A DNA stretch of 64,000 nucleotides from Alphaproteobacteria bacterium. Lineage in GTDB: Bacteria > Pseudomonadota > Alphaproteobacteria > Bin95. The position numbers and the translations under genes were made by a program. Below the pieces are notes generated by a model that saw only the letters and a program-made list of their open reading frames with translations, was not told where the DNA came from and did no database searches. Positions 4,579-29,110 of the stretch are shown here, piece after piece. Numbering within the stretch: the first letter of the stretch is position 1; every line of letters starts with the position of its first letter. The stretch covers positions 416,001 to 480,000 of the forward strand of contig CAXXWS020000003.1 of NCBI GenBank assembly GCA_963665325.3, in the 5' to 3' direction.

Positions 4579-5448
4579 ATGACGCAACCGGTCAAGACGG
4601 CGGTCATTCCGGCGGGAGGGCTCGGCACACGGTTCCTGCCGGCTACCAAGGCTGTGCCGAAGGAAATGCTTCCCGTGGTGGACAAGCCGCTGATCCAGTA
4701 TGCGGTCGAGGAGGCGCAGGCGGCCGGGATCGAGTCCTTCGTGTTCGTGACCACGCGCGGCAAGGCGGCCATGGAGGACCATTTCGACCTCGCTACGGAA
4801 CTGGATGAGGTGCTGGCGGCGGACGGCAAGGAGGAGTTGCGCGCGGCGGCCTCCGCTATGGTGCCGGCGGCGGGCGCGGTCGTGCATGTCCGCCAGCAGG
4901 CGCCGCTCGGCCTCGGCCATGCGGTCTGGTGCGCGCGCCATGTGGTCGGCGATGCGCCGTTCGCCGTGCTGCTGCCCGACGATCTCGTGCTCTCCGAACG
5001 GCCCTGCCTTGCCCAGCTTCTCGACGTCCACCGCGCGCATGGCGGCAATGTCGCCGCAGTCATGGACGTGCCGCGCGAGGAGACCGTCCGTTACGGCGTG
5101 CTGGACGTGGTGGAAGATGATGGGCGGCTGGCCTCGGTGCGGGGCCTGGTCGAGAAGCCGGCTCCGGCCGACGCACCCTCGACGCTCGCCATCGTGGGCC
5201 GCTATGTGCTCGACCCCTCGGTGCTCACCGCGCTCGACGATCAGGAAACCGGCGCCGGCGGCGAAATCCAGTTGACCGACGCCATGGCGCGCACGGTCGG
5301 CGATGTGCCCTTCCACGGCCTTCGCTTCGAGGGAAGGCGATACGACTGCGGCGACAAGTTGGGCTTCCTCGAAGCGAATATCGCTTGCGCGCTCGCGAGA
5401 CCCGATCTTGCGCCGGCGGCTAGGGAAATCCTGGCCCGCTTCGTCTGA
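4579..5448 (+). CDS. galU: UTP-glucose-1-phosphate uridylyltransferase
   Basis: AVIPAGGLGTRFLPATKAVPKEMLPVVDKP, VEKP, GEIQLTDAM. Confidence 0.95.
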   Translation: MTQPVKTAVIPAGGLGTRFLPATKAVPKEMLPVVDKPLIQYAVEEAQAAGIESFVFVTTRGKAAMEDHFDLATELDEVLAADGKEELRAAASAMVPAAGAVVHVRQQAPLGLGHAVWCARHVVGDAPFAVLLPDDLVLSERPCLAQLLDVHRAHGGNVAAVMDVPREETVRYGVLDVVEDDGRLASVRGLVEKPAPADAPSTLAIVGRYVLDPSVLTALDDQETGAGGEIQLTDAMARTVGDVPFHGLRFEGRRYDCGDKLGFLEANIACALARPDLAPAAREILARFV

Positions 5449-5487
5449 AGCAGCGGCCGGCACCGGGAAGGCGGCGGGGGAAAGGAC

Positions 5488-6801
5488 ATGCGCATTGCGA
5501 TGGTGGGCGCGGGCTATGTCGGCCTGGTAACGGGCTCCTGTTTCTCCGAGTTCGGCACGGATGTGGTCTGCGTGGACAAGGACGCGGACCGGATCCGGGC
5601 GCTCAGGCAAGGCGACATGCCGATCTTCGAACCGGGTCTCGACGATCTGGTGGCGCGCAATGTCGACGCGGGCCGCCTGTCCTTTACGACCGACCTCGAA
5701 GAGGCCGTCGGTGAAGCGGATGTCGTGTTCATCGCCGTCGGTACGCCGAGTCGGCGCGGCGACGGCCATGCGGACCTGAGTTTCGTCTTCGAAGCGGCGC
5801 GGGAGGTCGCGGCGGCGGTTCGGGGCTATACCGTGCTGGTGACCAAATCGACGGTGCCCGTCGGGACAGGTGCGCGCGTTGCGGAGATTGCCGGGCAATT
5901 GCGGCCGGACACCGAGATCGATGTCGTCTCCAACCCTGAATTCCTGCGCGAGGGCGCAGCGATCGAGGACTTTATGCGCCCCGACCGGGTGGTGATCGGC
6001 GCGGAGACCGACCGCGCCCGCGCCGCGATGCAGGAACTCTATCGGCCGCTCTTCCTGCGCGAGACGCCGATCCTGTTCACCGACCGCGAGACGGCGGAGC
6101 TGACCAAATACGCCGCCAATGCCTTCCTCGCGGTCAAGATCACCTTCATCAACGAGATCGCCGACCTTTGCGAGCGCGTGGGCGCGGACGTGCAGGACGT
6201 GGCGCGCGGCATGGGGCTCGACCGGCGCATTGGCGACAAGTTCCTGCATCCCGGCCCCGGCTACGGAGGCTCCTGTTTCCCGAAGGACACGCTGGCGTTG
6301 ACCCGGACGGCAAGCGATGCCGGTACGCCCGTGCGCTTGGTGGAAACGGCCGCCGCGGTCAACGAGGACCGCAAGCGCGCCATGACCGGGCGGGTAATGG
6401 AGGCGCTCGGCGGCGATGCGGCGGGCAAGACGGTCGCCGTGCTGGGCCTCGCCTTCAAGCCCAATACGGATGACATGCGCGAGGCGCCGAGCCTGGAACT
6501 GGTGCCGGCGCTGCAGGCGGCCGGGGCGGCGGTGCGCGCCTACGACCCGCAGGCGATGGCAACGGCCGGCCCGCTGCTGCCCGGCGTGACATGGTGCGCG
6601 GACGTTTACGAGGCGGCGGCCGGGGCCGATTGCGCGGTGCTGCTGACCGAATGGAACGAATTCCGCGGGGTGAACTTGGACCGGCTGCGGGCCGCGATGG
6701 CTGCGCCAGCGATAGTGGACCTCCGCAATGTGTACAAACCGGCGGAAATGGCAGCCGCAGGTTTCGCCTATCGCGGCATTGGAAAAGGGCGGACGACGTG
6801 A
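5488..6801 (+). CDS. ugd: UDP-glucose/GDP-mannose 6-dehydrogenase
   Basis: [43 protein letters not shown]. Confidence 0.93.
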
Positions 6802-19624: not shown

Positions 19625-21646
19625 ATGGGCTTGACGAGCGCTGCCCGACTGCGGTTCCTCGCCTTGGCTCTGGCGGCTCTGGCGGCGCTGGCGGTCGCTT
19701 CGGAGGCGCGCGCCGCTGCATCGCCATGGGCGCGGACGCCGGAGGCCGCCGTGCGCCTCGTGTCGGCGAGCGAGGCTGTCGGGAGCCTGGACCGTCTGCG
19801 CCTCGGACTCGAATTCGAACTGGCGCCCGGGTGGAAGACCTATTGGCGCAGCCCCGGCGACGGGGGCCTGCCGCCGGCGCTCGACTGGGCCGGAAGCGGC
19901 AATCTCGGCGAGGCCAGCCTCTACTGGCCGGCGCCGGCGCGCTTCACCATTCTCGGCATCGACAGCGTCGGCTACGAGGACCGTGTGCTCCTGCCCATGG
20001 ATGTGCGGGTTCCCGAGCCGGGTGAACCGGTGCAGGCCCGGCTCCGGGTGGACTATCTTACCTGCTCCGACATCTGCGTGCCGCAAAGCGCCGACCTCGC
20101 ACTGGCCCTGCCTGCCGGCCCGGCGCAGCCTTCGGCGGAGGCATTCGCCATCGATCGCTGGCGGGGCCGCGCGCCCCGGCCGGAACCGGTGGCCGGCCGG
20201 GCGGAGCTGGTCGGGACGGGAGACGCGGCGGTCCTCCGTGTAGCCCTGCCGGGCATCGAGGCGGAGGACATCTTCGTCGAAGCGGGGAACTTCGCCGCTT
20301 TCGGCCGGCCGTCGCCGGTCGCAGGCGGGCTCGCAGTGCCGGTGGCCTATGCGAAGGGCGGGCCGGAGGCGCTGATCGGCCGCGAGCTGGTGGCGACCGT
20401 CACGGGCGGCGGCGAGGCTGTGGAGCAACGCCTGCGGGTGGCCCCGGCCGGCGAGGCGGCGGGCTACGGCATCGCGATAATCCTGGCGCTTGCGCTTGCG
20501 GGCGGCGTCATCCTCAACCTCATGCCCTGCGTCCTGCCGGTGCTCGGCATCAAGCTCATGCATTTCGCAGGTCTCGGCGGGGCCGGCCGGGGCCGGGCGC
20601 GGGCGGAGTTCCTGGCCGTTGCCGGCGGCATCCTGTTTTCGTTCTGGCTTCTGGCCGGAGCGGCGGTTGCGGCGACCCAGGCCGGAATGGCGGTCGGCTG
20701 GGGCGTCCAGTTCCAGCAGCCGGTCTTCCTCGCGGCGATGTTGTTCCTGCTGCTCCTGTTCGCAGCCAATCTGTGGGGCTTTTTCGAGATTCCGGCGCCG
20801 CGCTTTGCGGGCGGGCTCCGGGGCGGGCCGTTCCTCACCGGCATGTTCGCGACGTTGTTGGCGACCCCCTGTTCGGCGCCCTTCGTGGGCACCGCGGTCG
20901 GTTTCGCGCTTACGCGGGGACCGTTGGAAATTGCGCTCATCTTCACGGCGCTCGGCCTCGGCCTCGCCCTGCCCTATCTCGCAGTGGCCGCCCTGCCGGG
21001 CGTGGCGGCGGCGCTGCCGAAGCCCGGCCGCTGGACGGTGTGGCTGCGCTTCGTCCTGGGGCTGGCGCTGGCGGGCACGGCGGTGTGGCTGCTGACCGTG
21101 CTGGCGGCGCAACTCGGCTGGGCGGCGGCCGCGACGGCCCTGGCGGCAGCAGCGCTGCCTGCCGCCCTCCTTGCCGCCTGGGCGAGGCGGGGCGGGCGCA
21201 TCCTTGCAGGCGGAGCTGCGCTGGCGGCCGCGGCCGGTCTTGCAGCGGTGCTGGTCCTGCCGGCCTCCATGGAGCCGGCGGCGCCGGGCGGCCGCTGGCA
21301 CGCGTTCGAGGAAGCCCGGATCGGGCCGCTGGTGTCGGAAGGCCGGACGGTTTTCGTCGATGTGACGGCCGACTGGTGCATCACCTGCAAGTTCAACAAG
21401 GCGGCCGTGCTGGACCGAGGCACGGTCGCGGCCCGTCTCACCGGGGATGTGGTGGCGATGCGCGCCGACTGGACCCGCCCGGACGCCGCCATTTCAGCCT
21501 ATCTCGCCCGCTTCGCCCGCTACGGCATCCCCTTCAACGCGGTATACGGCCCGGGCGCGCCCGCCGGGGTTCCACTGCCGGAATTGCTGACCGAAGGCGC
21601 CGTGCTGGAAGCGCTGGACGAGGCCGGTCGGAGATCGGGCGAATAG
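19625..21646 (+). CDS. dsbD: Protein-disulfide reductase, DsbD/ScsB family
   Basis: GWKTYWR.PG, C..ICVP, LNLMPCVLPVL, TPCSAPF, TADWCITCK thioredoxin domain. Confidence 0.9.
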   Translation: MGLTSAARLRFLALALAALAALAVASEARAAASPWARTPEAAVRLVSASEAVGSLDRLRLGLEFELAPGWKTYWRSPGDGGLPPALDWAGSGNLGEASLYWPAPARFTILGIDSVGYEDRVLLPMDVRVPEPGEPVQARLRVDYLTCSDICVPQSADLALALPAGPAQPSAEAFAIDRWRGRAPRPEPVAGRAELVGTGDAAVLRVALPGIEAEDIFVEAGNFAAFGRPSPVAGGLAVPVAYAKGGPEALIGRELVATVTGGGEAVEQRLRVAPAGEAAGYGIAIILALALAGGVILNLMPCVLPVLGIKLMHFAGLGGAGRGRARAEFLAVAGGILFSFWLLAGAAVAATQAGMAVGWGVQFQQPVFLAAMLFLLLLFAANLWGFFEIPAPRFAGGLRGGPFLTGMFATLLATPCSAPFVGTAVGFALTRGPLEIALIFTALGLGLALPYLAVAALPGVAAALPKPGRWTVWLRFVLGLALAGTAVWLLTVLAAQLGWAAAATALAAAALPAALLAAWARRGGRILAGGAALAAAAGLAAVLVLPASMEPAAPGGRWHAFEEARIGPLVSEGRTVFVDVTADWCITCKFNKAAVLDRGTVAARLTGDVVAMRADWTRPDAAISAYLARFARYGIPFNAVYGPGAPAGVPLPELLTEGAVLEALDEAGRRSGE

Positions 21647-21733: not shown

Positions 21734-22426
21734 ATGGCAGTCAGCCGCAACGATCTGGAGACCATTCGCCAGCTTCCCCTGTTCCAGGGGCTGGCGCCGG
21801 ACGCGCTTCGATCTCTGGTCGGCGGTGCGGAGGTCCTCGCCTACTCGAAACGGACCGCGATCTTCGAGCAGGGCCAGCGGGTCACCCATTTTTTCGCTGT
21901 GCTCTCCGGGTGGGTGAAGCTGTTTCGCCTGCGCCCGGACGGAACGGAAGTGATCATCGAGGTTTTCGGCCCCGGCGAATCCTTTGCCGAAGGCGCGATC
22001 TGCATGGAGGAGGGCTATCCGGTTTCCGCCGAGCTGGTGGAGGACGGCAGGCTGCTGGCCGTGCCCGTTGCGGATTACATAGAGCGGTTGCGGGAGGATC
22101 CGGAACTGGTCGTGAGGACCTTCGCCTCGCTCGCGGTGAACCTGAAGCGCCTGGTCTCCCGGATCGAGACCGGCAGCAGCCTCAACTCTTCGCAGCGGGT
22201 GGGTGCCTTCCTGCTGCACTTCTGCCCGTCCCCGAGGCCGGACGGCGGCGCTGTCGATGTGCGCCTGCCCTATGACAAGAAGCTGATCGCAAACCGGCTC
22301 GGCATGAAACCGGAAACCTTTTCGAGAGCGCTGGCCAGCCTCAGAAAGCACGGGGTCGCCGTCCGGGGCGGCAGCGCGCGTATCGCCGACCTGGCGGATC
22401 TCCGCCGGCACGTCTCTCCCGAGTAG
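21734..22426 (+). CDS. Crp/Fnr family transcriptional regulator
   Basis: cNMP-binding domain (GPGESFAE) and HTH IANRLGMKPETFSRAL. Confidence 0.92.
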   Translation: MAVSRNDLETIRQLPLFQGLAPDALRSLVGGAEVLAYSKRTAIFEQGQRVTHFFAVLSGWVKLFRLRPDGTEVIIEVFGPGESFAEGAICMEEGYPVSAELVEDGRLLAVPVADYIERLREDPELVVRTFASLAVNLKRLVSRIETGSSLNSSQRVGAFLLHFCPSPRPDGGAVDVRLPYDKKLIANRLGMKPETFSRALASLRKHGVAVRGGSARIADLADLRRHVSPE

Positions 22427-22472: not shown

Positions 22473-23702
22473 GTGGCCGCCACCATCGACTACGACGCCC
22501 TGCTGGCGCCGGACCTGCCGCCGCCCGCGCCCCGCTGGAAGGGGTTCGCGCCCTATAATTTCATCGGCGGCAATGTCGATGCGGCGAGCATGCCGGTCGA
22601 GGACATGATTACGGCGACCGCAGCTGCACTGCGCCGCGAAGGAACGACGCTTGCGACCTACGGAATGGAGAGCGGCCCGCTCGGCTACCGCCCGCTGCGC
22701 GAGTTCGTGGCGTCCAAGCTCCGGAAACGCAGCGGCCTCGCGGTCTCGCCTGACAATGTCCTCATCACCTCGGGCTCGAACCAGGGGCTGGACCTCGTCA
22801 ACCAGATTTTCCTGCGCCCGGGCGACACGGTGCTGGTCGAGCAGTTCAGCTATGGCAGCGCGCTCGCCCGTCTGCGCAAGCTCGGCGCGACGCCGGTGGG
22901 AATCCCGCTCGACGGCGACGGCATGCGCATGGACCGCCTCGCGGAAAAGCTGGCCGGGCTCGCCTCCGAGGGCGTGAAGCCGAAATTCATCTATGTCATT
23001 CCGACGATCCAGAACCCCGGCGGCAGCATCATGCCCGAGGCGCGCCGCGCGGAGCTTCTGGAACTTTCGGCGGAATACGGCGTGCCGATCTTCGAGGACG
23101 AGTGCTACGCAGACCTTCTGTGGGCGAACGAGCGCCCCCCCGCCATCGCGGCGATGGACGAGGGCAACCGGGTCATCCATTGCGGCTCGTTCTCGAAGAC
23201 GATCGCGCCGGCGCTGCGCGTCGGATACATAGTTGCGGAGCTCGCGCTGATCGCCCGGATGGTCGCCTGCAAGACAGATGGCGGCACCGGTGCGCTCGAG
23301 CAGATAATGCTGGCGGAATACTGCCGCACACGCTTCGACAACCATGTCGATCGCGTAACAGTTCTGCTCAAGGAAAAGCTCGACGCCATGACCGGGGCGC
23401 TGGAGGAGCATTTCGGCACGGCTGCCGAATTCGTGCCGCCGGAAGGGGGTATCTTCCTCTGGATTTCCTTGCCCGACGCTGTGGATGCAATGAAGCTGTC
23501 AGCCGCGTCCGCCGCCAGCGGCATCGCCATCAATCCCGGCCCGGAATGGTCCGCCGACGCCGAACCCGCCCGTTCGCGCATCCGGCTCTGTTTCGGCAAC
23601 CCGACTGTCGACGAAATCCGCGACGGCGTGAAGAAGCTGGCCGAAATCTGCCACCGGGAGTTCGGGATTCCGCTCCGGAGCGGCAATATCGAGCGGGCGT
23701 GA
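22473..23702 (+). CDS. PLP-dependent aminotransferase, class I (LysN/MocR-like)
   Basis: ITSGSNQGL, PTIQNPGG, EDECY, GSFSKTIAPALRVG. Confidence 0.9.
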   Translation: MAATIDYDALLAPDLPPPAPRWKGFAPYNFIGGNVDAASMPVEDMITATAAALRREGTTLATYGMESGPLGYRPLREFVASKLRKRSGLAVSPDNVLITSGSNQGLDLVNQIFLRPGDTVLVEQFSYGSALARLRKLGATPVGIPLDGDGMRMDRLAEKLAGLASEGVKPKFIYVIPTIQNPGGSIMPEARRAELLELSAEYGVPIFEDECYADLLWANERPPAIAAMDEGNRVIHCGSFSKTIAPALRVGYIVAELALIARMVACKTDGGTGALEQIMLAEYCRTRFDNHVDRVTVLLKEKLDAMTGALEEHFGTAAEFVPPEGGIFLWISLPDAVDAMKLSAASAASGIAINPGPEWSADAEPARSRIRLCFGNPTVDEIRDGVKKLAEICHREFGIPLRSGNIERA

Positions 23703-23748
23703 CCGGGCCGGTTGCGCGGCGGTCCGGGGCTGCCGCATGCTTTCCGGC

Positions 23749-25050
23749 ATGAGCGAAGCGCCGGAATTTCCGCCGGGCCCGGACCGCCCCCTGCCCGAGG
23801 CGACCGAGGTCGTCGTCATCGGCGGCGGCGTGGTCGGCGTCACCGCCGCGCTCACACTCGCGGAATGGGGCGTGCCGGCCGTGCTCTGCGAGAAGGGTCG
23901 GATCGCGGGCGAGCAGTCCTCCCGCAACTGGGGGTGGATCCGCGTCCAGGGGCGCGATGTGCGCGAAATTCCCCTGATGCTGGAATCGCAGGCGCTGTGG
24001 CGCCGTTTCGGGGAACGGAGCAACGTCGATTTCGGCCTCCGCCAGGGCGGTATCGCCCATCTGGCGGAAGATGAGGAAGAGCTTGCCGGACGCCAGGCCT
24101 GGCTCGCCTCCGCGCGACCCTTCCAGCTCTCCTCGCGGATGCTCACTTCCGCCGAGGCCGGCGAGCGGATCGGACAGGACGGAACGCGTTTCGCCGGTGG
24201 GCTGCTGACGCCGACCGACATGCATGCCGAGCCCGCCCTCGCGGTTCCGGCGCTCGCGCGCCTTGCCGCCGAGGCCGGCGCGGCGATCTTCGAGCGGACG
24301 GCCGTGCGCTCCCTGGAGCGTTCCGGCGGTCGAGTTACGGGGGTTGTCACCGAGCACGGGGCCGTCGCCTGCCGCGCGGTCATCCTGGCGGGCGGCGCCT
24401 GGTGCCGGCCGTTCCTGGAAAACATGGGCCATTCCCTGCCGCAACTCGCCGTGCGCGCGCAGGCGCTGCGGACCGCGCCCGCGCAGCCGATTGCGCCGGG
24501 GCCGGTCGGGACGCGTGCGGCGTCGGTGCGCCCGCGTCTGGATGGCGGCTATACCGTCGGACGCGCAGGAACGGCGCGCTTCGACCTGATCCCCGCCGCC
24601 TTCGCCCATTTCCGGGCCTTCCTGCCGCTGCTCCGGGAGAGCTGGCGGGCGACGCAGATCCGGTTCGGCCCCGAGTTCTTCGGTGCGCTCGGCCGGCGGC
24701 GCTGGCGCGCCGACCAGTTCAGTCCGATGGAACAGGCCCGCATGCTCGACCCCGCCCCGGACAGGAAGATGTCTGTCGCTCTCCTGCGCGCGGCCGGGCG
24801 GGTCTATCCGCAACTCCGGGATGTGCCGGCGGTCGAGGACTGGGGCGGGATGATCGACGTCACACCCGACGAGGTCCCGTTGATCGGGCCGGTGGCGGGC
24901 GTGGAGGGGCTGACGCTGGCGTCGGGGCTCTCCGGCCACGGTTTCGGCTTCGGGCCGGGCGCGGGCCTGCTCGCGGCCCAACTCGCCACCGGGCGCGAGC
25001 CCGCCGCCGACCCGACCCCCTTCGCAACCGACCGCTTCGACCGGCCGTGA
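23749..25050 (+). CDS. FAD-dependent oxidoreductase (DAO/DadA family)
   Basis: VVIGGGVVG, EQSSRNWGW, WGGMIDVTPD, GLSGHGFG. Confidence 0.9.
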   Translation: MSEAPEFPPGPDRPLPEATEVVVIGGGVVGVTAALTLAEWGVPAVLCEKGRIAGEQSSRNWGWIRVQGRDVREIPLMLESQALWRRFGERSNVDFGLRQGGIAHLAEDEEELAGRQAWLASARPFQLSSRMLTSAEAGERIGQDGTRFAGGLLTPTDMHAEPALAVPALARLAAEAGAAIFERTAVRSLERSGGRVTGVVTEHGAVACRAVILAGGAWCRPFLENMGHSLPQLAVRAQALRTAPAQPIAPGPVGTRAASVRPRLDGGYTVGRAGTARFDLIPAAFAHFRAFLPLLRESWRATQIRFGPEFFGALGRRRWRADQFSPMEQARMLDPAPDRKMSVALLRAAGRVYPQLRDVPAVEDWGGMIDVTPDEVPLIGPVAGVEGLTLASGLSGHGFGFGPGAGLLAAQLATGREPAADPTPFATDRFDRP

Positions 25051-25082: not shown

Positions 25083-26297
25083 GTGACCCATACCGCCGCT
25101 GCCCGCTTCATGCTGGCGACCTGCTTCCTGGTGCTGTTGTTCAATGGCGGCGCCCGCTTCGCCATCGGCCTGCTGCTTGAGCCGATGACCGAAGACCTCG
25201 AATGGAGCCGCAGCGCCGTCTCCCTCAACGTCACCCTGTTCATGGTGCTGTCCGCCTGCGCCATGTTCCTCGTCGGCCGCCTTGTGGACCGCGCGGGCGC
25301 CGTCGTCGTGCTGGGCGCGGCCGTGCTCGTCTCGGCAGCCGGGCTCGCGTCGATGAGCTTCGTCGAGCATCCCTGGCAGGCGCTCCTGCTTTACGGCGTG
25401 GTGTTCGCGCTCGGCAGCGCCGGCACCTCGATCACGCCTATCGGGGTGCTGCTCAGTCGCTGGTATCCGCAGCGGATGGGGATGGCCAACAGCATCGCGA
25501 TCTCCGGCATGGGACTCGGCCAGTTGCTGGTCATCTCGCTGCTCGCCGCGCAGCTTGCCGTGCTCGGCTGGCGCGGATCCTTCCTCGCGCTCGGGATCGT
25601 GACGCTGACATGCGTGCTGCCGCTCATGGTGCTGGCGCGGAGCGTCCCCGGCGCCGCGCGGGCCTCCGCGCCGGGCGGCGCGTCCCGCCCGGCCGCTTCG
25701 TCCGGGGGAGGGGCGGCCACCCTCCGCGAAGCCCTGTCTTCGCGCCGCCTGCAACTGCTTCTCGTCATCTATGCAATCTGCGGCTTCCAGGACTTCCTGG
25801 TTGCCACCCATGTCGTCGCCTTTGCGGTGGATGAGGGCGTCGGTCGCCTGCTCGCCGGCAATGTCCTGGCTTTCATGGGGCTGGCTGGCGTCGGCGGCGT
25901 GTTGCTGACCGGCGTGCTCAACGACCGCTGGGGTCCGGTCCTGCCGACCGCGGTCTGTTTCGTGCTGAGGACCCTGCTTTGTGCCGTTTTGCTGGTGAGC
26001 CGGGAGCCCGCCGTCATCGCCGGCGCGGCACTGCTCTTCGGCGCGACCTTCTGGGTCACCGCACCGCTCACCGTGGTTTTCGGCCGCGAGATTGCGGCCA
26101 TGTCCCTGCTCGGTACGGTGACCGGGCTCATCACCATGGTCCACCATTCGGCGGGCGGACTCGGCGCGCTCGTCGGCGGCACGATCTTCGATGCCCATGG
26201 GTCCTACGACGCGGCGTTCGTCCTCATGCTGGTGCTGTCCGTCGCCGCCCTCGTCCTCACCTTCGCCTTGCCGGCCCCTCCACGCCGGGGACCTTGA
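25083..26297 (+). CDS. MFS transporter
   Basis: About 12 TM segments, GRLVDRAG, GVLNDRWG. Confidence 0.9.
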   Translation: MTHTAAARFMLATCFLVLLFNGGARFAIGLLLEPMTEDLEWSRSAVSLNVTLFMVLSACAMFLVGRLVDRAGAVVVLGAAVLVSAAGLASMSFVEHPWQALLLYGVVFALGSAGTSITPIGVLLSRWYPQRMGMANSIAISGMGLGQLLVISLLAAQLAVLGWRGSFLALGIVTLTCVLPLMVLARSVPGAARASAPGGASRPAASSGGGAATLREALSSRRLQLLLVIYAICGFQDFLVATHVVAFAVDEGVGRLLAGNVLAFMGLAGVGGVLLTGVLNDRWGPVLPTAVCFVLRTLLCAVLLVSREPAVIAGAALLFGATFWVTAPLTVVFGREIAAMSLLGTVTGLITMVHHSAGGLGALVGGTIFDAHGSYDAAFVLMLVLSVAALVLTFALPAPPRRGP

Positions 26298-26351: not shown

Positions 26352-27236
26352 ATGGAACCGGTGCGCTATATCGACCGTACGCGCGACGACTACATTCGGC
26401 AGGGCTATGAGCAGGCCTATGAGTGGGCGCATTTCGAGGATGTGCCGTTCGCGCGGCTCGACAAGCCGCTTTCGGAATGCCGCGTCGGGCTGATCGGCAC
26501 CAGCGAGATCGCGGTGCGCTACGACCCGGAGACGGAAGAGAACCCCGTTGTCGAAGAGGATTTCCGGGGCGTCTATTCCTTCTCCGCCGACACGCCGACG
26601 GAGAAGCTTTACAGCCGCACCGCCTCGTTCGACCGCTTCGCCACCCATCTGGACGACGTCAACGCCTATTACCCGGTGGACCGCCTGCGCGAAGCCGTGG
26701 CGGACGGTCGGGTCGCCGGCATCCCGGACCGGCTCTACGGCTGCTACAACAATTACAGCAAGCGCAAGGTGATGACCGAGGAGGCGGCGAAGGCGCTCGC
26801 TTATTGCCGCGAGGACGGCATCGACGCGCTCCTCATGGTGCCTGTCTGACCCGTCTGCCATCAGACCGTGAGTCTGATAAGCAGGCATATCGAGGCGGCA
26901 GGCATCCCGACCGTAGTGATCGGGGCTGCACGCGACATCGTCGAGCATTGCGGCGTCGCCCGCTACGTCTTCACCGACTTCCCGCTCGGCAGCCCTTGCG
27001 GCGAGCCCTGGGATACGGACCAGCAGCGCATCATCTTCCAGATGGCGCTCGACCTGCTCGAGGAGGCAAAGGGCCCGCGCACCACCCGCGAGGCGGGTTT
27101 CCGCTGGACGGGCGGCGAGGACTGGAAGCGGCTCGTGTTCACCGCCGAACAGCCCTGGCAGGACGAGGCCACCCACGCCAAATGGATGGCGCGCAAGGAG
27201 GAATACCGCCAGCTCCGCGCGGCGGGCAAGGTATGA
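26352..27236 (+). CDS. Selenoprotein, proline/glycine reductase selenoprotein B (PrdB/GrdB)-like; UGA 26847-26849 read as Sec
   Basis: Two track ORFs are in frame across one TGA, giving LMVPV-U-PVCHQTVSLISRHIEAAGIPTV (UxxC, PrdB-like context); also KPLSECRVGLIGT, D.NAYYP.DRL and FPLG.PCG motifs. Confidence 0.87.
26853..26886 (+). promoter_or_regulatory. Candidate bacterial SECIS element
   Basis: GTCTGC-C-ATCAGAC-(CGTGA)-GTCTGAT-AA-GCAGGC hairpin directly 3' of the UGA; loop G 19 nt after UGA. Confidence 0.72.
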
Positions 27237-27490
27237 CCGGCATGGCGGCCGCCCCCGCCGTCACGCTCTACACCACGCCGCTCTGCGCGCCTTGCGAGCA
27301 GATCAAGCGCTACCTGGAGTCGCGCGGCGTCGCGTTTGCCCGGCGCGACCTGATGATGGACGAGGAGGCGCAGGACCGTCTCGACGCCGCCCGCATCCGG
27401 GGCACGCCGGCCGTCGAGGTGGACGGGACGTTCCTCGTCGGCGACGGGCTGACCCGCGAGGCTCTGGACCGGCTGCTCGGGCTGGACTGA
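27233..27490 (+). CDS. Glutaredoxin/NrdH-like redoxin
   Basis: VTLYTTPLCAPCEQIKRYLESRGV...GTPAVEVDG (CxxC plus cis-Pro TP); ATGA overlap with selenoprotein stop. Confidence 0.87.
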   Translation: MTGMAAAPAVTLYTTPLCAPCEQIKRYLESRGVAFARRDLMMDEEAQDRLDAARIRGTPAVEVDGTFLVGDGLTREALDRLLGLD

Positions 27491-27497
27491 CAGCGCC

Positions 27498-28376
27498 GTG
27501 GCGGAGCCGGTCGTTCTCTATGAGGAACGGGGCCCCGTCGCCCTCGTTTCGCTCAACCGGCCCGAACGCCTCAACACGCTGACCGAGGAAATGGTCGAGG
27601 GCGTGGCGGACGCCATCGACCGCGCCTCCGCCTCACGCTCCGTGCGCGCGATCGTGCTGCGCGGCGAAGGGCGGGCGTTCACGGCGGGCTACGATCTGGA
27701 AGCAACCGGCGCCTCCCTGGAGGGCTGGTCGCAGCCCTACGATGCGCCGAGCCCGGAGCCGCGCCCCGGGGCCTGGGACCCGGTGCGGGACTACCGCAGC
27801 ATGGGGCGCAATGTCGAGCGGTTCATGAAAATCTGGGACTGCCCGAAGCCGGTGCTGGGCGCGATACACGGCTGGGCGGTCGGCGGCGCGACGGACCTCG
27901 TGCTCTGCTGCGACCTGCTCTTCATGGCCGAAGACGCCTTCATCGGCTATGCGCCGTCCAGGATTTTCGGCACGCCGACGACCATGCTCTGGGTCTATCG
28001 CCTCGGCCTCGAGCACGCCAAGCAGTTCCTGCTGAGCGGCGACGCCATCGACGCGGCGACGGCGCACCGCATCGGCCTGGTCTCTTATGTCTGCCCGCCG
28101 GAGGAGCTGGACGAGCGCATAGAGGCGCATGCAAGGCGCTTCGAGCATATTCCAGCCAACCAGCTTGCGCTCAACAAGCTGCTCATCAACCAGGCCTTCG
28201 AGAATATGGGCCTGCGCACGACGCAGCTGCTCGGCACGCTGTTCGACGGCATGACGCGCCATACCGAAGAAGCCCATCGCTGGGCCGAAAGCCTTGCCGA
28301 GCAGGGCATGCGCCGCACCGCCGCTGCCCGCGACGCCCCCTTCGGCGACTACAGCGCAAGGCCGCGCAAGGACTGA
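27498..28376 (+). CDS. Crotonase/enoyl-CoA hydratase family protein
   Basis: LNRPERLN, FTAGYDL, PKPVLGAIHGWAVGG, A.RIGLV. Confidence 0.92.
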   Translation: MAEPVVLYEERGPVALVSLNRPERLNTLTEEMVEGVADAIDRASASRSVRAIVLRGEGRAFTAGYDLEATGASLEGWSQPYDAPSPEPRPGAWDPVRDYRSMGRNVERFMKIWDCPKPVLGAIHGWAVGGATDLVLCCDLLFMAEDAFIGYAPSRIFGTPTTMLWVYRLGLEHAKQFLLSGDAIDAATAHRIGLVSYVCPPEELDERIEAHARRFEHIPANQLALNKLLINQAFENMGLRTTQLLGTLFDGMTRHTEEAHRWAESLAEQGMRRTAAARDAPFGDYSARPRKD

Positions 28377-28474: not shown

Positions 28475-29110
28475 ATGACTGTCGACAGTTACCTGCTCTA
28501 TCTGGCGACCCTCGGTGTGTTCTTCGCGAGCCCGCCGGGTACCAGCCAGCTCCTCGTAATGGCCAACGGCGCACGCCACGGGCTGCGGCGAACGGGCTGG
28601 ACAATTGCCGGCGACCTCTCGGCGAATGCGCTGCAGATGACCGCCGCGGCGTTCGGCATCGCAGCCGCGATCGCCGCCTCGTCCGAGATATTCCGCCTCG
28701 TCAAGTGGCTGGGGGTCGCCTACCTGGCCTGGATCGGCTTGCGCCTGCTTCTGTCGAAGTCGGGCGACAGGACCGAGGCGGCCGAAGCGGCCCGTTCGCG
28801 TGCGCGGCTGTTCCGTCAGGGATTCATCACATCGAGCGCCAACCCGTTCGCGGTCATGTTTTTTGCCGCGCTCTTCCCGCAGTTCATCGATCCTGCTGCA
28901 CCGACGCTTCCCCAGCTCGCAGTTCTCGGCGGGACCTATCTGGTCGTCGATGGCCTGATCCTGCTGGCCTGGGGCCTGCTCGCCGAAAGGGCCGGAGCGC
29001 GCATCCGGGCGCAGGGCTTCAGTCTGCTCAACCGCATGTGCGGAACATTGATGGTCGGCGCCGCCATGCTTCTGGCCCTCAGGGACTTCGAACCGCAGCA
29101 GCGCCGATAA
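28475..29110 (+). CDS. LysE/RhtB family translocator
   Basis: SPPG...NG.RHG, KWLGVAYL.WIG, FRQGFITSSANP...FF.ALFPQF. Confidence 0.9.
   Translation: MTVDSYLLYLATLGVFFASPPGTSQLLVMANGARHGLRRTGWTIAGDLSANALQMTAAAFGIAAAIAASSEIFRLVKWLGVAYLAWIGLRLLLSKSGDRTEAAEAARSRARLFRQGFITSSANPFAVMFFAALFPQFIDPAAPTLPQLAVLGGTYLVVDGLILLAWGLLAERAGARIRAQGFSLLNRMCGTLMVGAAMLLALRDFEPQQRR

Follow-up and report, generated by a model that had tools for sequence, protein, structure and literature searches.

A 64-kb stretch of alphaproteobacterial DNA (assembly GCA_963665325.3, contig CAXXWS020000003.1, positions 416,001 to 480,000; the window, in what follows, is this whole stretch of 64,000 nucleotides) holds two short open reading frames (ORFs) that together resemble the selenocysteine (Sec, U) proteins PrdB and GrdB of clostridia, and it raises the question of whether they are one gene and, if so, how such a protein could work in a bacterium that appears to respire oxygen. 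An initial annotation, made from the sequence alone, had read the two ORFs, in frame and parted by one TGA, as a PrdB/GrdB-like UxxC selenoprotein that gene callers would split, followed by a 7-bp hairpin with a G-containing loop and by a CAPC glutaredoxin gene overlapping the stop by ATGA, and had proposed a stand-alone Sec reductase plus redoxin module lacking PrdA or GrdA/C/E partners in the window. We find that the ORF pair is a single selenocysteine gene, not two small genes, and that it probably forms, with the adjoining gene, a two-gene redox module in which a PrdB-like Sec enzyme without a pyruvoyl subunit is served by a dedicated redoxin in an oxygen-respiring bacterium. The earlier reading is supported by a downstream hairpin resembling a selenocysteine insertion sequence (SECIS), by the Sec machinery of the genome, by the redoxin neighbour and by the failure to find Stickland partners. 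The module consists of the following features:

26352..27236, forward strand: PrdB-like selenoprotein gene of 294 codons, with UGA-166 read through and the true stop TGA at 27234-27236
26847..26849, forward strand: in-frame UGA predicted to be read as selenocysteine (U166), TGA in 99/110 related loci
26853..26886, forward strand: bacterial SECIS-like hairpin, from folding and comparison with relatives
26856-26858, forward strand: codon TGC of the predicted resolving Cys169, the second half of UxxC
27233..27490, forward strand: glutaredoxin/NrdH-like redoxin gene, 85 aa, PF00462

One selenocysteine gene with an in-frame UGA

The ORFs at 26352-26849 and 26868-27236 share a frame and are split by one TGA at 26847-26849, so that both coordinates and sequence match the initial description. 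The Shine-Dalgarno-like stretch GGAAGGAGG lies immediately 5' of the ATG at 26352, and read-through yields a product that runs ...LLMVPV-U-PVCHQTVSLISRHIEAAGIPTV; within its 294 residues the motif stands in the context ...LLMVPV-U166-PVC169-HQTVSLISRHIEAAGIPTV, the UxxC of the window protein being U166-P-V-C169.

To place this site among relatives we used 110 related loci. Of these, 30 come from the window's order, represented by 37 genomes, and the other 80 from species representatives of GTDB (the best 80 of 576 confirmed relatives); three of these loci represent the same genome, found via both routes, and give identical tree rows. The UGA column holds TGA in 99 of the 110 loci and TGC or TGT in the remaining 11, which is the Sec/Cys pairing that the initial annotation had advised looking for, and full-length database homologues (291-297 residues, 47-56% identical) carry an invariant CPVCHQT there. 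Across 90 distinct Sec sequences, the first four codons 3' of the TGA occur in synonymous variants (Pro 4, Val 4, Cys 2, His 2) with zero amino-acid changes, so that this frame is translated beyond the TGA. The nearest entries in the database are fragments of 165 residues that end at the TGA, which means that gene callers do split the gene, as had been foreseen; among the many such entries, P0015 (165 residues, 96% identity to the window protein, 122 member sequences) is an example. A search of a protein cluster atlas with a natural Cys homologue matched GRDB-type clusters only. Reads showing TGC or TGT had been named as evidence that would speak against Sec; two studies contributed RNA-library contigs (four runs; 95-99% identity to the window) that cross 26847-26849 without any listed difference and keep the TGA, and contigs of three runs have gaps over 26546-26791.

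The host genome (5.58 Mb in five contigs, 100% complete by marker genes) encodes SelA (486.8 bits), SelB (442.2 bits; selB adjoins selA) and SelD (270.6 bits), and a tRNA with anticodon UCA is called tRNA-Sec by both Rfam (72.6 bits) and ARAGORN. The search for Sec machinery suggested at the outset thus found every component; none of the sel genes, nor any Grd/Prd partner, lies within the window, the sel genes being located elsewhere in the genome. We consider it very probable that the window gene encodes a genuine selenoprotein, and infer that Sec is inserted at the UGA in vivo.

A conserved hairpin directly downstream of the UGA

In the upper stem of the hairpin, 7 bp long, ATCAGAC (26860-26866) pairs with GTCTGAT (26872-26878) around an apical loop CGUGA (CGTGA in DNA; 26867-26871), which contains a G and starts 18 nt 3' of the UGA. 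The lower stem of 6 bp (26853-26858/26881-26886, RNAfold) is less conserved than the upper one, and the minimum free energy of the fold is -17.7 kcal/mol (RNAfold). It is comparison with relatives, not single-sequence energy, that supports the hairpin. In the alignment of the 90 distinct Sec sequences, standard pairs fill 98.3% of the 630 cells of the 7-bp stem, and sliding the stem by 1-3 columns leaves only 14-29% paired. At pair 15-31, 62 sequences have C-G, 26 have U-A and 2 lack a pair, a covariation that ties the wobble position of the His codon to the first position of an Ile/Val codon five codons downstream; at pair 18-28, 89 have G-C and one has A-U (CAA...UUG in L089). Double-sided changes occupy 27 cells, where shuffles average 8.0, and 0/500 shuffles reach 27, a count that is not a probability because the sequences are related and coding. 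Codon usage across the stem and loop differs between Sec and Cys forms as follows:

Thr codon: ACC in 90/90 Sec forms; ACC in 7/11 Cys forms
Next residue: Val GUG in 89/90 Sec forms; Ile (ATC/ATT) in 11/11 Cys forms
Ser codon: AGU in 85/90 Sec forms (plus 4 GGU and 1 AGC); AGC in 10 and TCC in 1 of the Cys forms
Leu codon: CUG in 89/90 Sec forms; CUG in 10 and UUG in 1 of the Cys forms

Cys forms lack both the uppermost two pairs of the stem and the G-rich loop. The locus offers an example of an RNA signal constraining a protein, with Sec forms fixed for Val (GUG) and for AGU, a rare codon for Ser, and Cys forms having Ile and AGC. Rfam returned chance matches only (E > 2) for the hairpin, and it holds no model of such elements. 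The hairpin first noticed in the window is conserved with compensatory changes among relatives and, judged by sequence, has the properties expected of a bacterial SECIS, namely a position directly 3' of the UGA, covariation and a G in the apical loop.

A distinct branch of the PrdB/GrdB superfamily

The best family match of the read-through protein is the PrdB model TIGR04483 (96.9 bits, E 1.2e-27; residues 33-239 on positions 20-221 of the 238-position model), whose equivalog cut-off of 300 is not reached. Alignment to PF07355 (GRDB), recommended together with the original family assignment, gave 22.1 bits, barely above the gathering threshold of 22, with residues 17-163 on model positions 200-345. 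Among the glycine/sarcosine/betaine reductase protein B models considered (TIGR01918, TIGR01917, NF040794 and NF040795), the selenoprotein B subfamily model TIGR01918 scored 33.2 bits against a cut-off of 65.45, with only positions about 200-420 covered. Because its scores against PrdB and GrdB models are below cut-off, the window protein represents a distinct branch of the PrdB/GrdB superfamily and is the equivalog of neither.

An AlphaFold model built with 41 sequences (mean predicted local distance difference test score, pLDDT, 91.9; predicted template modelling score, pTM, 0.90) has a strand at 159-163, then U166, then a helix at 167-182 in an alpha/beta domain, and would place the active site Sec166-Pro-Val-Cys169 at a helix start in a Rossmann-like alpha/beta domain. 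No relative was found in the Protein Data Bank (PDB) by sequence (only chance matches, E 0.15 or worse), Foldseek against the PDB returned nothing at E <= 0.001, and VIA-align gave only generic Rossmann-like matches (LacI-type and short-chain dehydrogenase/reductase, SDR, with Z up to 9.5, a commonplace range) from which no function was inferred. Outside UxxC the invariant polar residues are R11, Y14, Y19, Y23, W25, D94, T98, D102, H170, Q171, R178, E181, D195, E198, R204 and D209; their number around the motif suggests a specific small-molecule site.

The window protein shares homology and the Sec of UxxC with clostridial PrdB (Clostridium sticklandii/Clostridioides difficile), but is longer by about 30 residues at its N terminus and by about 55 at its C terminus, is found without a detected pyruvoyl PrdA, PrdC or prd operon, is partnered by a Grx/NrdH-like protein (Grx, glutaredoxin) and belongs to a host that respires oxygen. 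GrdB, GrdF and GrdH (protein B; PF07355, TIGR01917/TIGR01918) are of the same superfamily and share the UxxC selenocysteine, but only the C-terminal part of the model, about 430 residues long, is matched by the 294-residue window protein, and GrdA and GrdE were not found. In D-proline reductase the substrate is held on the pyruvoyl group of PrdA, where the PrdB Sec attacks its alpha-carbon, the enzyme is regenerated via PrdC, and the characterised relatives all cleave C-N bonds (PMC11229817); protein B systems are reduced via the thioredoxin system (PMC13188914).

Stickland partners were not found

The initial annotation had seen no PrdA, GrdA or GrdE partner in the window, and neither the neighbours nor the genome searches yielded one. 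Canonical prdA adjoins prdB. By hmmscan, no PrdA/GrdE, GrdA or PrdC family was present among the neighbours in the window, in 111 ORFs of 14 loci or in 18 cluster representatives of 55 loci. Genome-wide, GrdA (PF04723) had 0 matches, with eight candidates scored, and PrdA/GrdE (PF09338) had 0 matches in this genome and in 0/37 genomes of the order, in searches that for both families also returned none in any of 14 control genomes; the best genome match to PrdC (TIGR04481) was 39.4 bits against a cut-off of 490. The genome does encode a haem-copper oxidase subunit I, and the host is accordingly taken to be an aerobic respirer, in keeping with the original impression. Near-identical DNA comes from holders mostly labelled as sponge metagenomes.

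One subfamily is coupled to its own redoxin

The redoxin ATG at 27233 overlaps the enzyme stop TGA (27234-27236) as ATGA, and the predicted active site is C18-A-P-C21 (codons 27284-27286 and 27293-27295). The protein matches PF00462 with 47.9 bits (E 1.6e-12), passing the gathering threshold of 22.9, and lies below the cut-offs of YruB TIGR02196 (55.6 vs 88.55) and NrdH TIGR02194 (32.9 vs 85.75); the nearest solved chain is NrdH 1r7h (E 3.8e-9). It resembles NrdH-redoxin/YruB-type proteins in length (about 80 residues), in having a CxxC and in matching a thioredoxin-fold Pfam family, but it differs in its CAPC motif, in its sub-cut-off scores and in not standing beside ribonucleotide reductase genes. 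Contigs from two of the RNA-library runs (X15, X18) have GTG at 27233 where the window has ATG (A>G); GTG can also start translation, and the overlap of 4 nt with the enzyme stop is kept.

The initial annotation had proposed examining the conservation of this neighbourhood. We computed a quick IQ-TREE tree of 112 rows, namely the 110 loci with two further paralogues from this genome and without a second, partial copy in L115; clades were defined by the tree and not by the redoxin, and a redoxin homologue was any phmmer match with E < 1e-5. The clade of the window gene (75 rows; support 87 in the SH-like approximate likelihood ratio test, SH-aLRT) has a redoxin homologue in 69/75 rows, directly downstream on the same strand in 68 and about 0.9 kb downstream in L035. 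In a sister clade of 27 rows (SH-aLRT 91), which holds the second paralogue of this genome, the count is 0/27, and in another of 9 rows from marine Alphaproteobacteria (SH-aLRT 100) it is 0/9. Where an ATG could be assigned, the redoxin starts between -4 and +4 nt from the upstream stop in 34/40 genes; the active site is CAPC in 53/66 redoxins found by motif search, and downstream of each of the 11 Cys-form enzymes lies a redoxin of the Cys type. The clade ranges over Alpha-, Beta- and Gammaproteobacteria, Myxococcota-type metagenome-assembled genomes (MAGs), SAR324, Hydrogenedentota, Acidimicrobiales and Rokubacteria, and 20/37 genomes of the window's order carry a Grx-linked orthologue of at least 73% identity.

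In two Rokubacteria MAGs (L101, 5882-6118; L111, 5882-6127) the first Cys codon of the redoxin, directly after a Sec PrdB-like gene, is TGA (U-R-P-C), and by sequence both members of these pairs are predicted selenoproteins in a two-selenoprotein operon. Kim et al. reportedly described in 2011 a selenoprotein glutaredoxin that recycles the selenoprotein MsrA in Clostridium. That couple is likewise one of a dedicated Grx reducing a Sec reductase, and the Rokubacteria Sec/Sec loci mirror its 'tandem use of selenocysteine', but the reductase families, MsrA and PrdB-like, are unrelated.

Three further loci are worth recording. A second PrdB-like copy, also stop-split, lies right after the redoxin in L088 (1419-2273, Hydrogenedentota MAG), and another is found nearby on the other strand in L075 (7224-8051, minus). 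The cultured pathogen genus Bordetella carries the module as a Cys form (L071, 5001-6118, in a Bordetella bronchiseptica chromosome); a few hundred nt upstream, the opposite strand encodes subunits of pertussis toxin, with no functional link seen.

Candidate mechanism and alternative readings

In the mechanism that we envisage, the UGA would be decoded as Sec by SelB and tRNA-Sec under the direction of the downstream hairpin, which starts 6 nt past the codon; the redoxin gene is translationally coupled to the enzyme gene. By analogy with D-proline reductase, the U166 selenolate would act as the nucleophile on an electrophilic carbon or heteroatom of the substrate, Cys169 would resolve the adduct to a Se-S bond (selenenylsulfide), and the dedicated redoxin would reduce this bond, being recharged in turn by thioredoxin reductase or glutathione. 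Unlike clostridial PrdB, the enzyme would work without PrdA/GrdE, GrdA and PrdC, and the substrate must then be activated differently, as no pyruvoyl subunit is available. We infer the direction of electron flow and the chemistry from the same analogy, and regard the redoxin as the likely direct electron donor of the enzyme.

A narrower version, which we offer tentatively and hold to be doubtful, is that the pair is a self-sufficient, pyruvoyl-independent reductive lyase of aerobes, in which the selenolate would displace a C-N, C-S or C-halogen leaving group beside a carboxylate or coenzyme A (CoA) thioester and the redoxin would supply two electrons. If true, Stickland-type selenium chemistry would have been recruited to aerobic catabolism in sponge-associated, marine and soil Proteobacteria, Rokubacteria and others, and the mislabelled abundant ocean 'PrdB' selenoproteins would gain a real function. 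Any particular substrate class is at best a doubtful assignment.

Several observations weigh against the module as we read it, or limit how far it can be taken. The folding energy of the hairpin, taken from the single sequence, is ordinary (z = -1.24; 18/200 shuffles fold equally well). The tree was a quick one, the SH-aLRT of the redoxin-bearing clade is 87 and three rows duplicate the same genome, and 6/75 clade rows are without an adjacent redoxin. No fused PrdB-like/redoxin protein was found among longer proteins, which is weak evidence. One RNA-library contig (26802-27345) extends into the redoxin gene, but RNA libraries can hold DNA, and a contig over two genes does not establish a single transcript. 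Because the GrdA and PrdA/GrdE searches had no positive control, genome-wide absence of these partners is likely, not demonstrated; and because the neighbours beyond the redoxin vary, a substrate is not assignable.

That last variability also fits an alternative, which we judge unlikely, in which the protein serves in thiol/selenol redox defence or repair, as a peroxide, disulfide or sulfoxide reductase recycled by glutaredoxin, and does not cleave carbon-heteroatom bonds: the redoxin is the only conserved partner, as for a self-contained housekeeping pair, and PrdB stands among the thiol-dependent redox selenoproteins of the Sargasso Sea in the published list, so far as available (PMC1088965). 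Yet the window neighbourhood contains no gene for a peroxiredoxin or methionine sulfoxide reductase (Msr), the numerous polar residues that are invariant outside UxxC suggest a pocket for a specific small molecule, and the C-N bond cleavage reported for all characterised relatives (PMC11229817) points away from a defence role.

Far less probable is that the protein serves as the B subunit of a genuine D-proline (or glycine/betaine) reductase, with a pyruvoyl partner of PrdA/GrdE type that is encoded at a distance or too divergent to be seen. PrdB TIGR04483 is the best family match, JGI and NCBI label relatives PrdB or selenoprotein B, and the partner searches ran without a positive control; but 96.9 bits is far under the equivalog cut-off of 300, neither PF09338 nor PF04723 is matched in the 100%-complete genome or in the 37 order genomes, PrdC is missing, the scanned neighbours of 14 and 55 loci include nothing PrdA-like, and the host has an aerobic oxidase. 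The reading of the TGA as a real stop, giving two proteins (165 aa, and 122 aa from GTG 26868), a pseudogene or a sequencing error, is scarcely credible, since although gene callers give 165-aa products and a GTG lies 18 nt after the TGA, that GTG is explained by the SECIS loop, as Cys forms have Ile at its position, and the reading is contradicted by TGA in 99/110 loci over several phyla, by an 18-nt spacer kept as PVCHQT with synonymous-only variation, by natural Cys forms that are uninterrupted, by the Sec machinery in the genome and by RNA-library contigs from other samples that keep the TGA.

A catalogued marine family with an unnoticed partner

The initial annotation had rated the novelty of the selenoprotein too highly. 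The available parts of two surveys list a 'proline reductase PrdB' with UxxC as the third most abundant family of the Sargasso Sea selenoproteome, with 42 genes (Zhang, Fomenko & Gladyshev 2005; PMC1088965), and 235 Sec and 110 Cys PrdB homologues in the Global Ocean Sampling (GOS) selenoproteome (Zhang & Gladyshev 2008; PMC2398784). By the features used there (PMC1088965, as far as available), the window gene fits the marine family: it has UxxC, pfam07355 and Sec/Cys pairs, its UGA is followed by a hairpin whose small apical loop includes a G, and it further shares with that family an excess of Sec over Cys forms and an occurrence in aerobic and marine bacteria. By these shared features it almost certainly belongs to this family. 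Public annotation (JGI, NCBI) likewise names relatives PrdB or selenoprotein B family; since the family has been listed since 2005 and relatives are already annotated, the selenoprotein is not itself new.

The available parts of the marine papers file the family as proline reductase and give neither a partner nor a separate function, whereas here PrdA was not found and a dedicated redoxin is present. We found no published PrdB-like/glutaredoxin pairing in the literature searched, whose coverage was incomplete and did not extend to supplements; the operon section of a 2026 review (PMC13188914) names grdA-grdB, prdB-prdC and others, not a PrdB-like/glutaredoxin pair. The tight glutaredoxin coupling of one subfamily is thus the new handle on a family that is among the most abundant selenoproteins of ocean metagenomes and whose name, 'proline reductase', is unsupported by its gene content. 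Nearly always translationally coupled to its own CxxC, sometimes UxxC, redoxin, the subfamily provides a defined two-protein couple as an experimental entry point. There is also an annotation to correct, as public catalogues hold many 165-residue fragments of the gene.

Genomic context and paralogues

The module lies in a same-strand array with short gaps, which is conserved within the genus only and continues after the LysE-type exporter with a second transporter of the major facilitator superfamily (MFS). The genes around the module, identified with Pfam and NCBIfam models, are:

21734-22426, forward strand: Crp-family regulator
22473-23702, forward strand: aminotransferase
23737-25050, forward strand: FAD-dependent amine/amino-acid oxidoreductase (DAO)
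25083-26297, forward strand: MFS transporter
27498..28376, forward strand: crotonase/enoyl-CoA hydratase (ECH) gene (ECH_1 E 2.6e-33; NF006128 304.6 bits vs cut-off 257)
28475..29110, forward strand: LysE-type exporter (PF01810 E 2.2e-29)

The crotonase gene, 8 nt 3' of the redoxin gene, is a possible operon member, and an ECH gene is downstream in 14/15 genus-level loci (L021-L035). Among 55 clade loci there is no consistent third gene: CoA-transferase III occurs in 11, an AMP-binding ligase in 8 and TctC in 7, with rhodanese, luciferase-like, SDR, ECH and acyl-CoA dehydrogenase genes in 5-6 of the 55 each. A tie of the substrate to acyl-CoA or amino-acid catabolism is a weak lead. The strand of the module also carries a DsbD-like thiol:disulfide interchange gene (19625-21643; DsbD_N plus a thioredoxin-like domain), some 5 kb upstream.

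This genome holds two further paralogues, each with an in-frame TGA. The first (G000:C4:88154-88933; L133, 4981-6051) reads UPVCHQT, is 44% identical and has no redoxin, its flanks being glyoxalase-fold, ECH and copper amine oxidase genes. The second (G000:C1:281568-282164; L134, about 5434-6690) has about 418-430 residues and UPNC, and adjoins genes for a zinc-dependent alcohol dehydrogenase, an ECH, a hydrolase and an acyl-CoA ligase. All three paralogues lie at most two genes from a crotonase-family gene, and as the genome has only about 38 ECH genes this threefold adjacency looks non-random. We nevertheless rejected the ECH link as pathway evidence and keep it as a lead only: it was noticed post hoc, the three ECHs are 26-28% identical, and the link is not widely held outside the order. 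One more ECH-family match in the genome (G000:C1:2363760-2364485, minus strand; 100.3 bits) itself contains one in-frame TGA and may be a pseudogene or a further recoding candidate.

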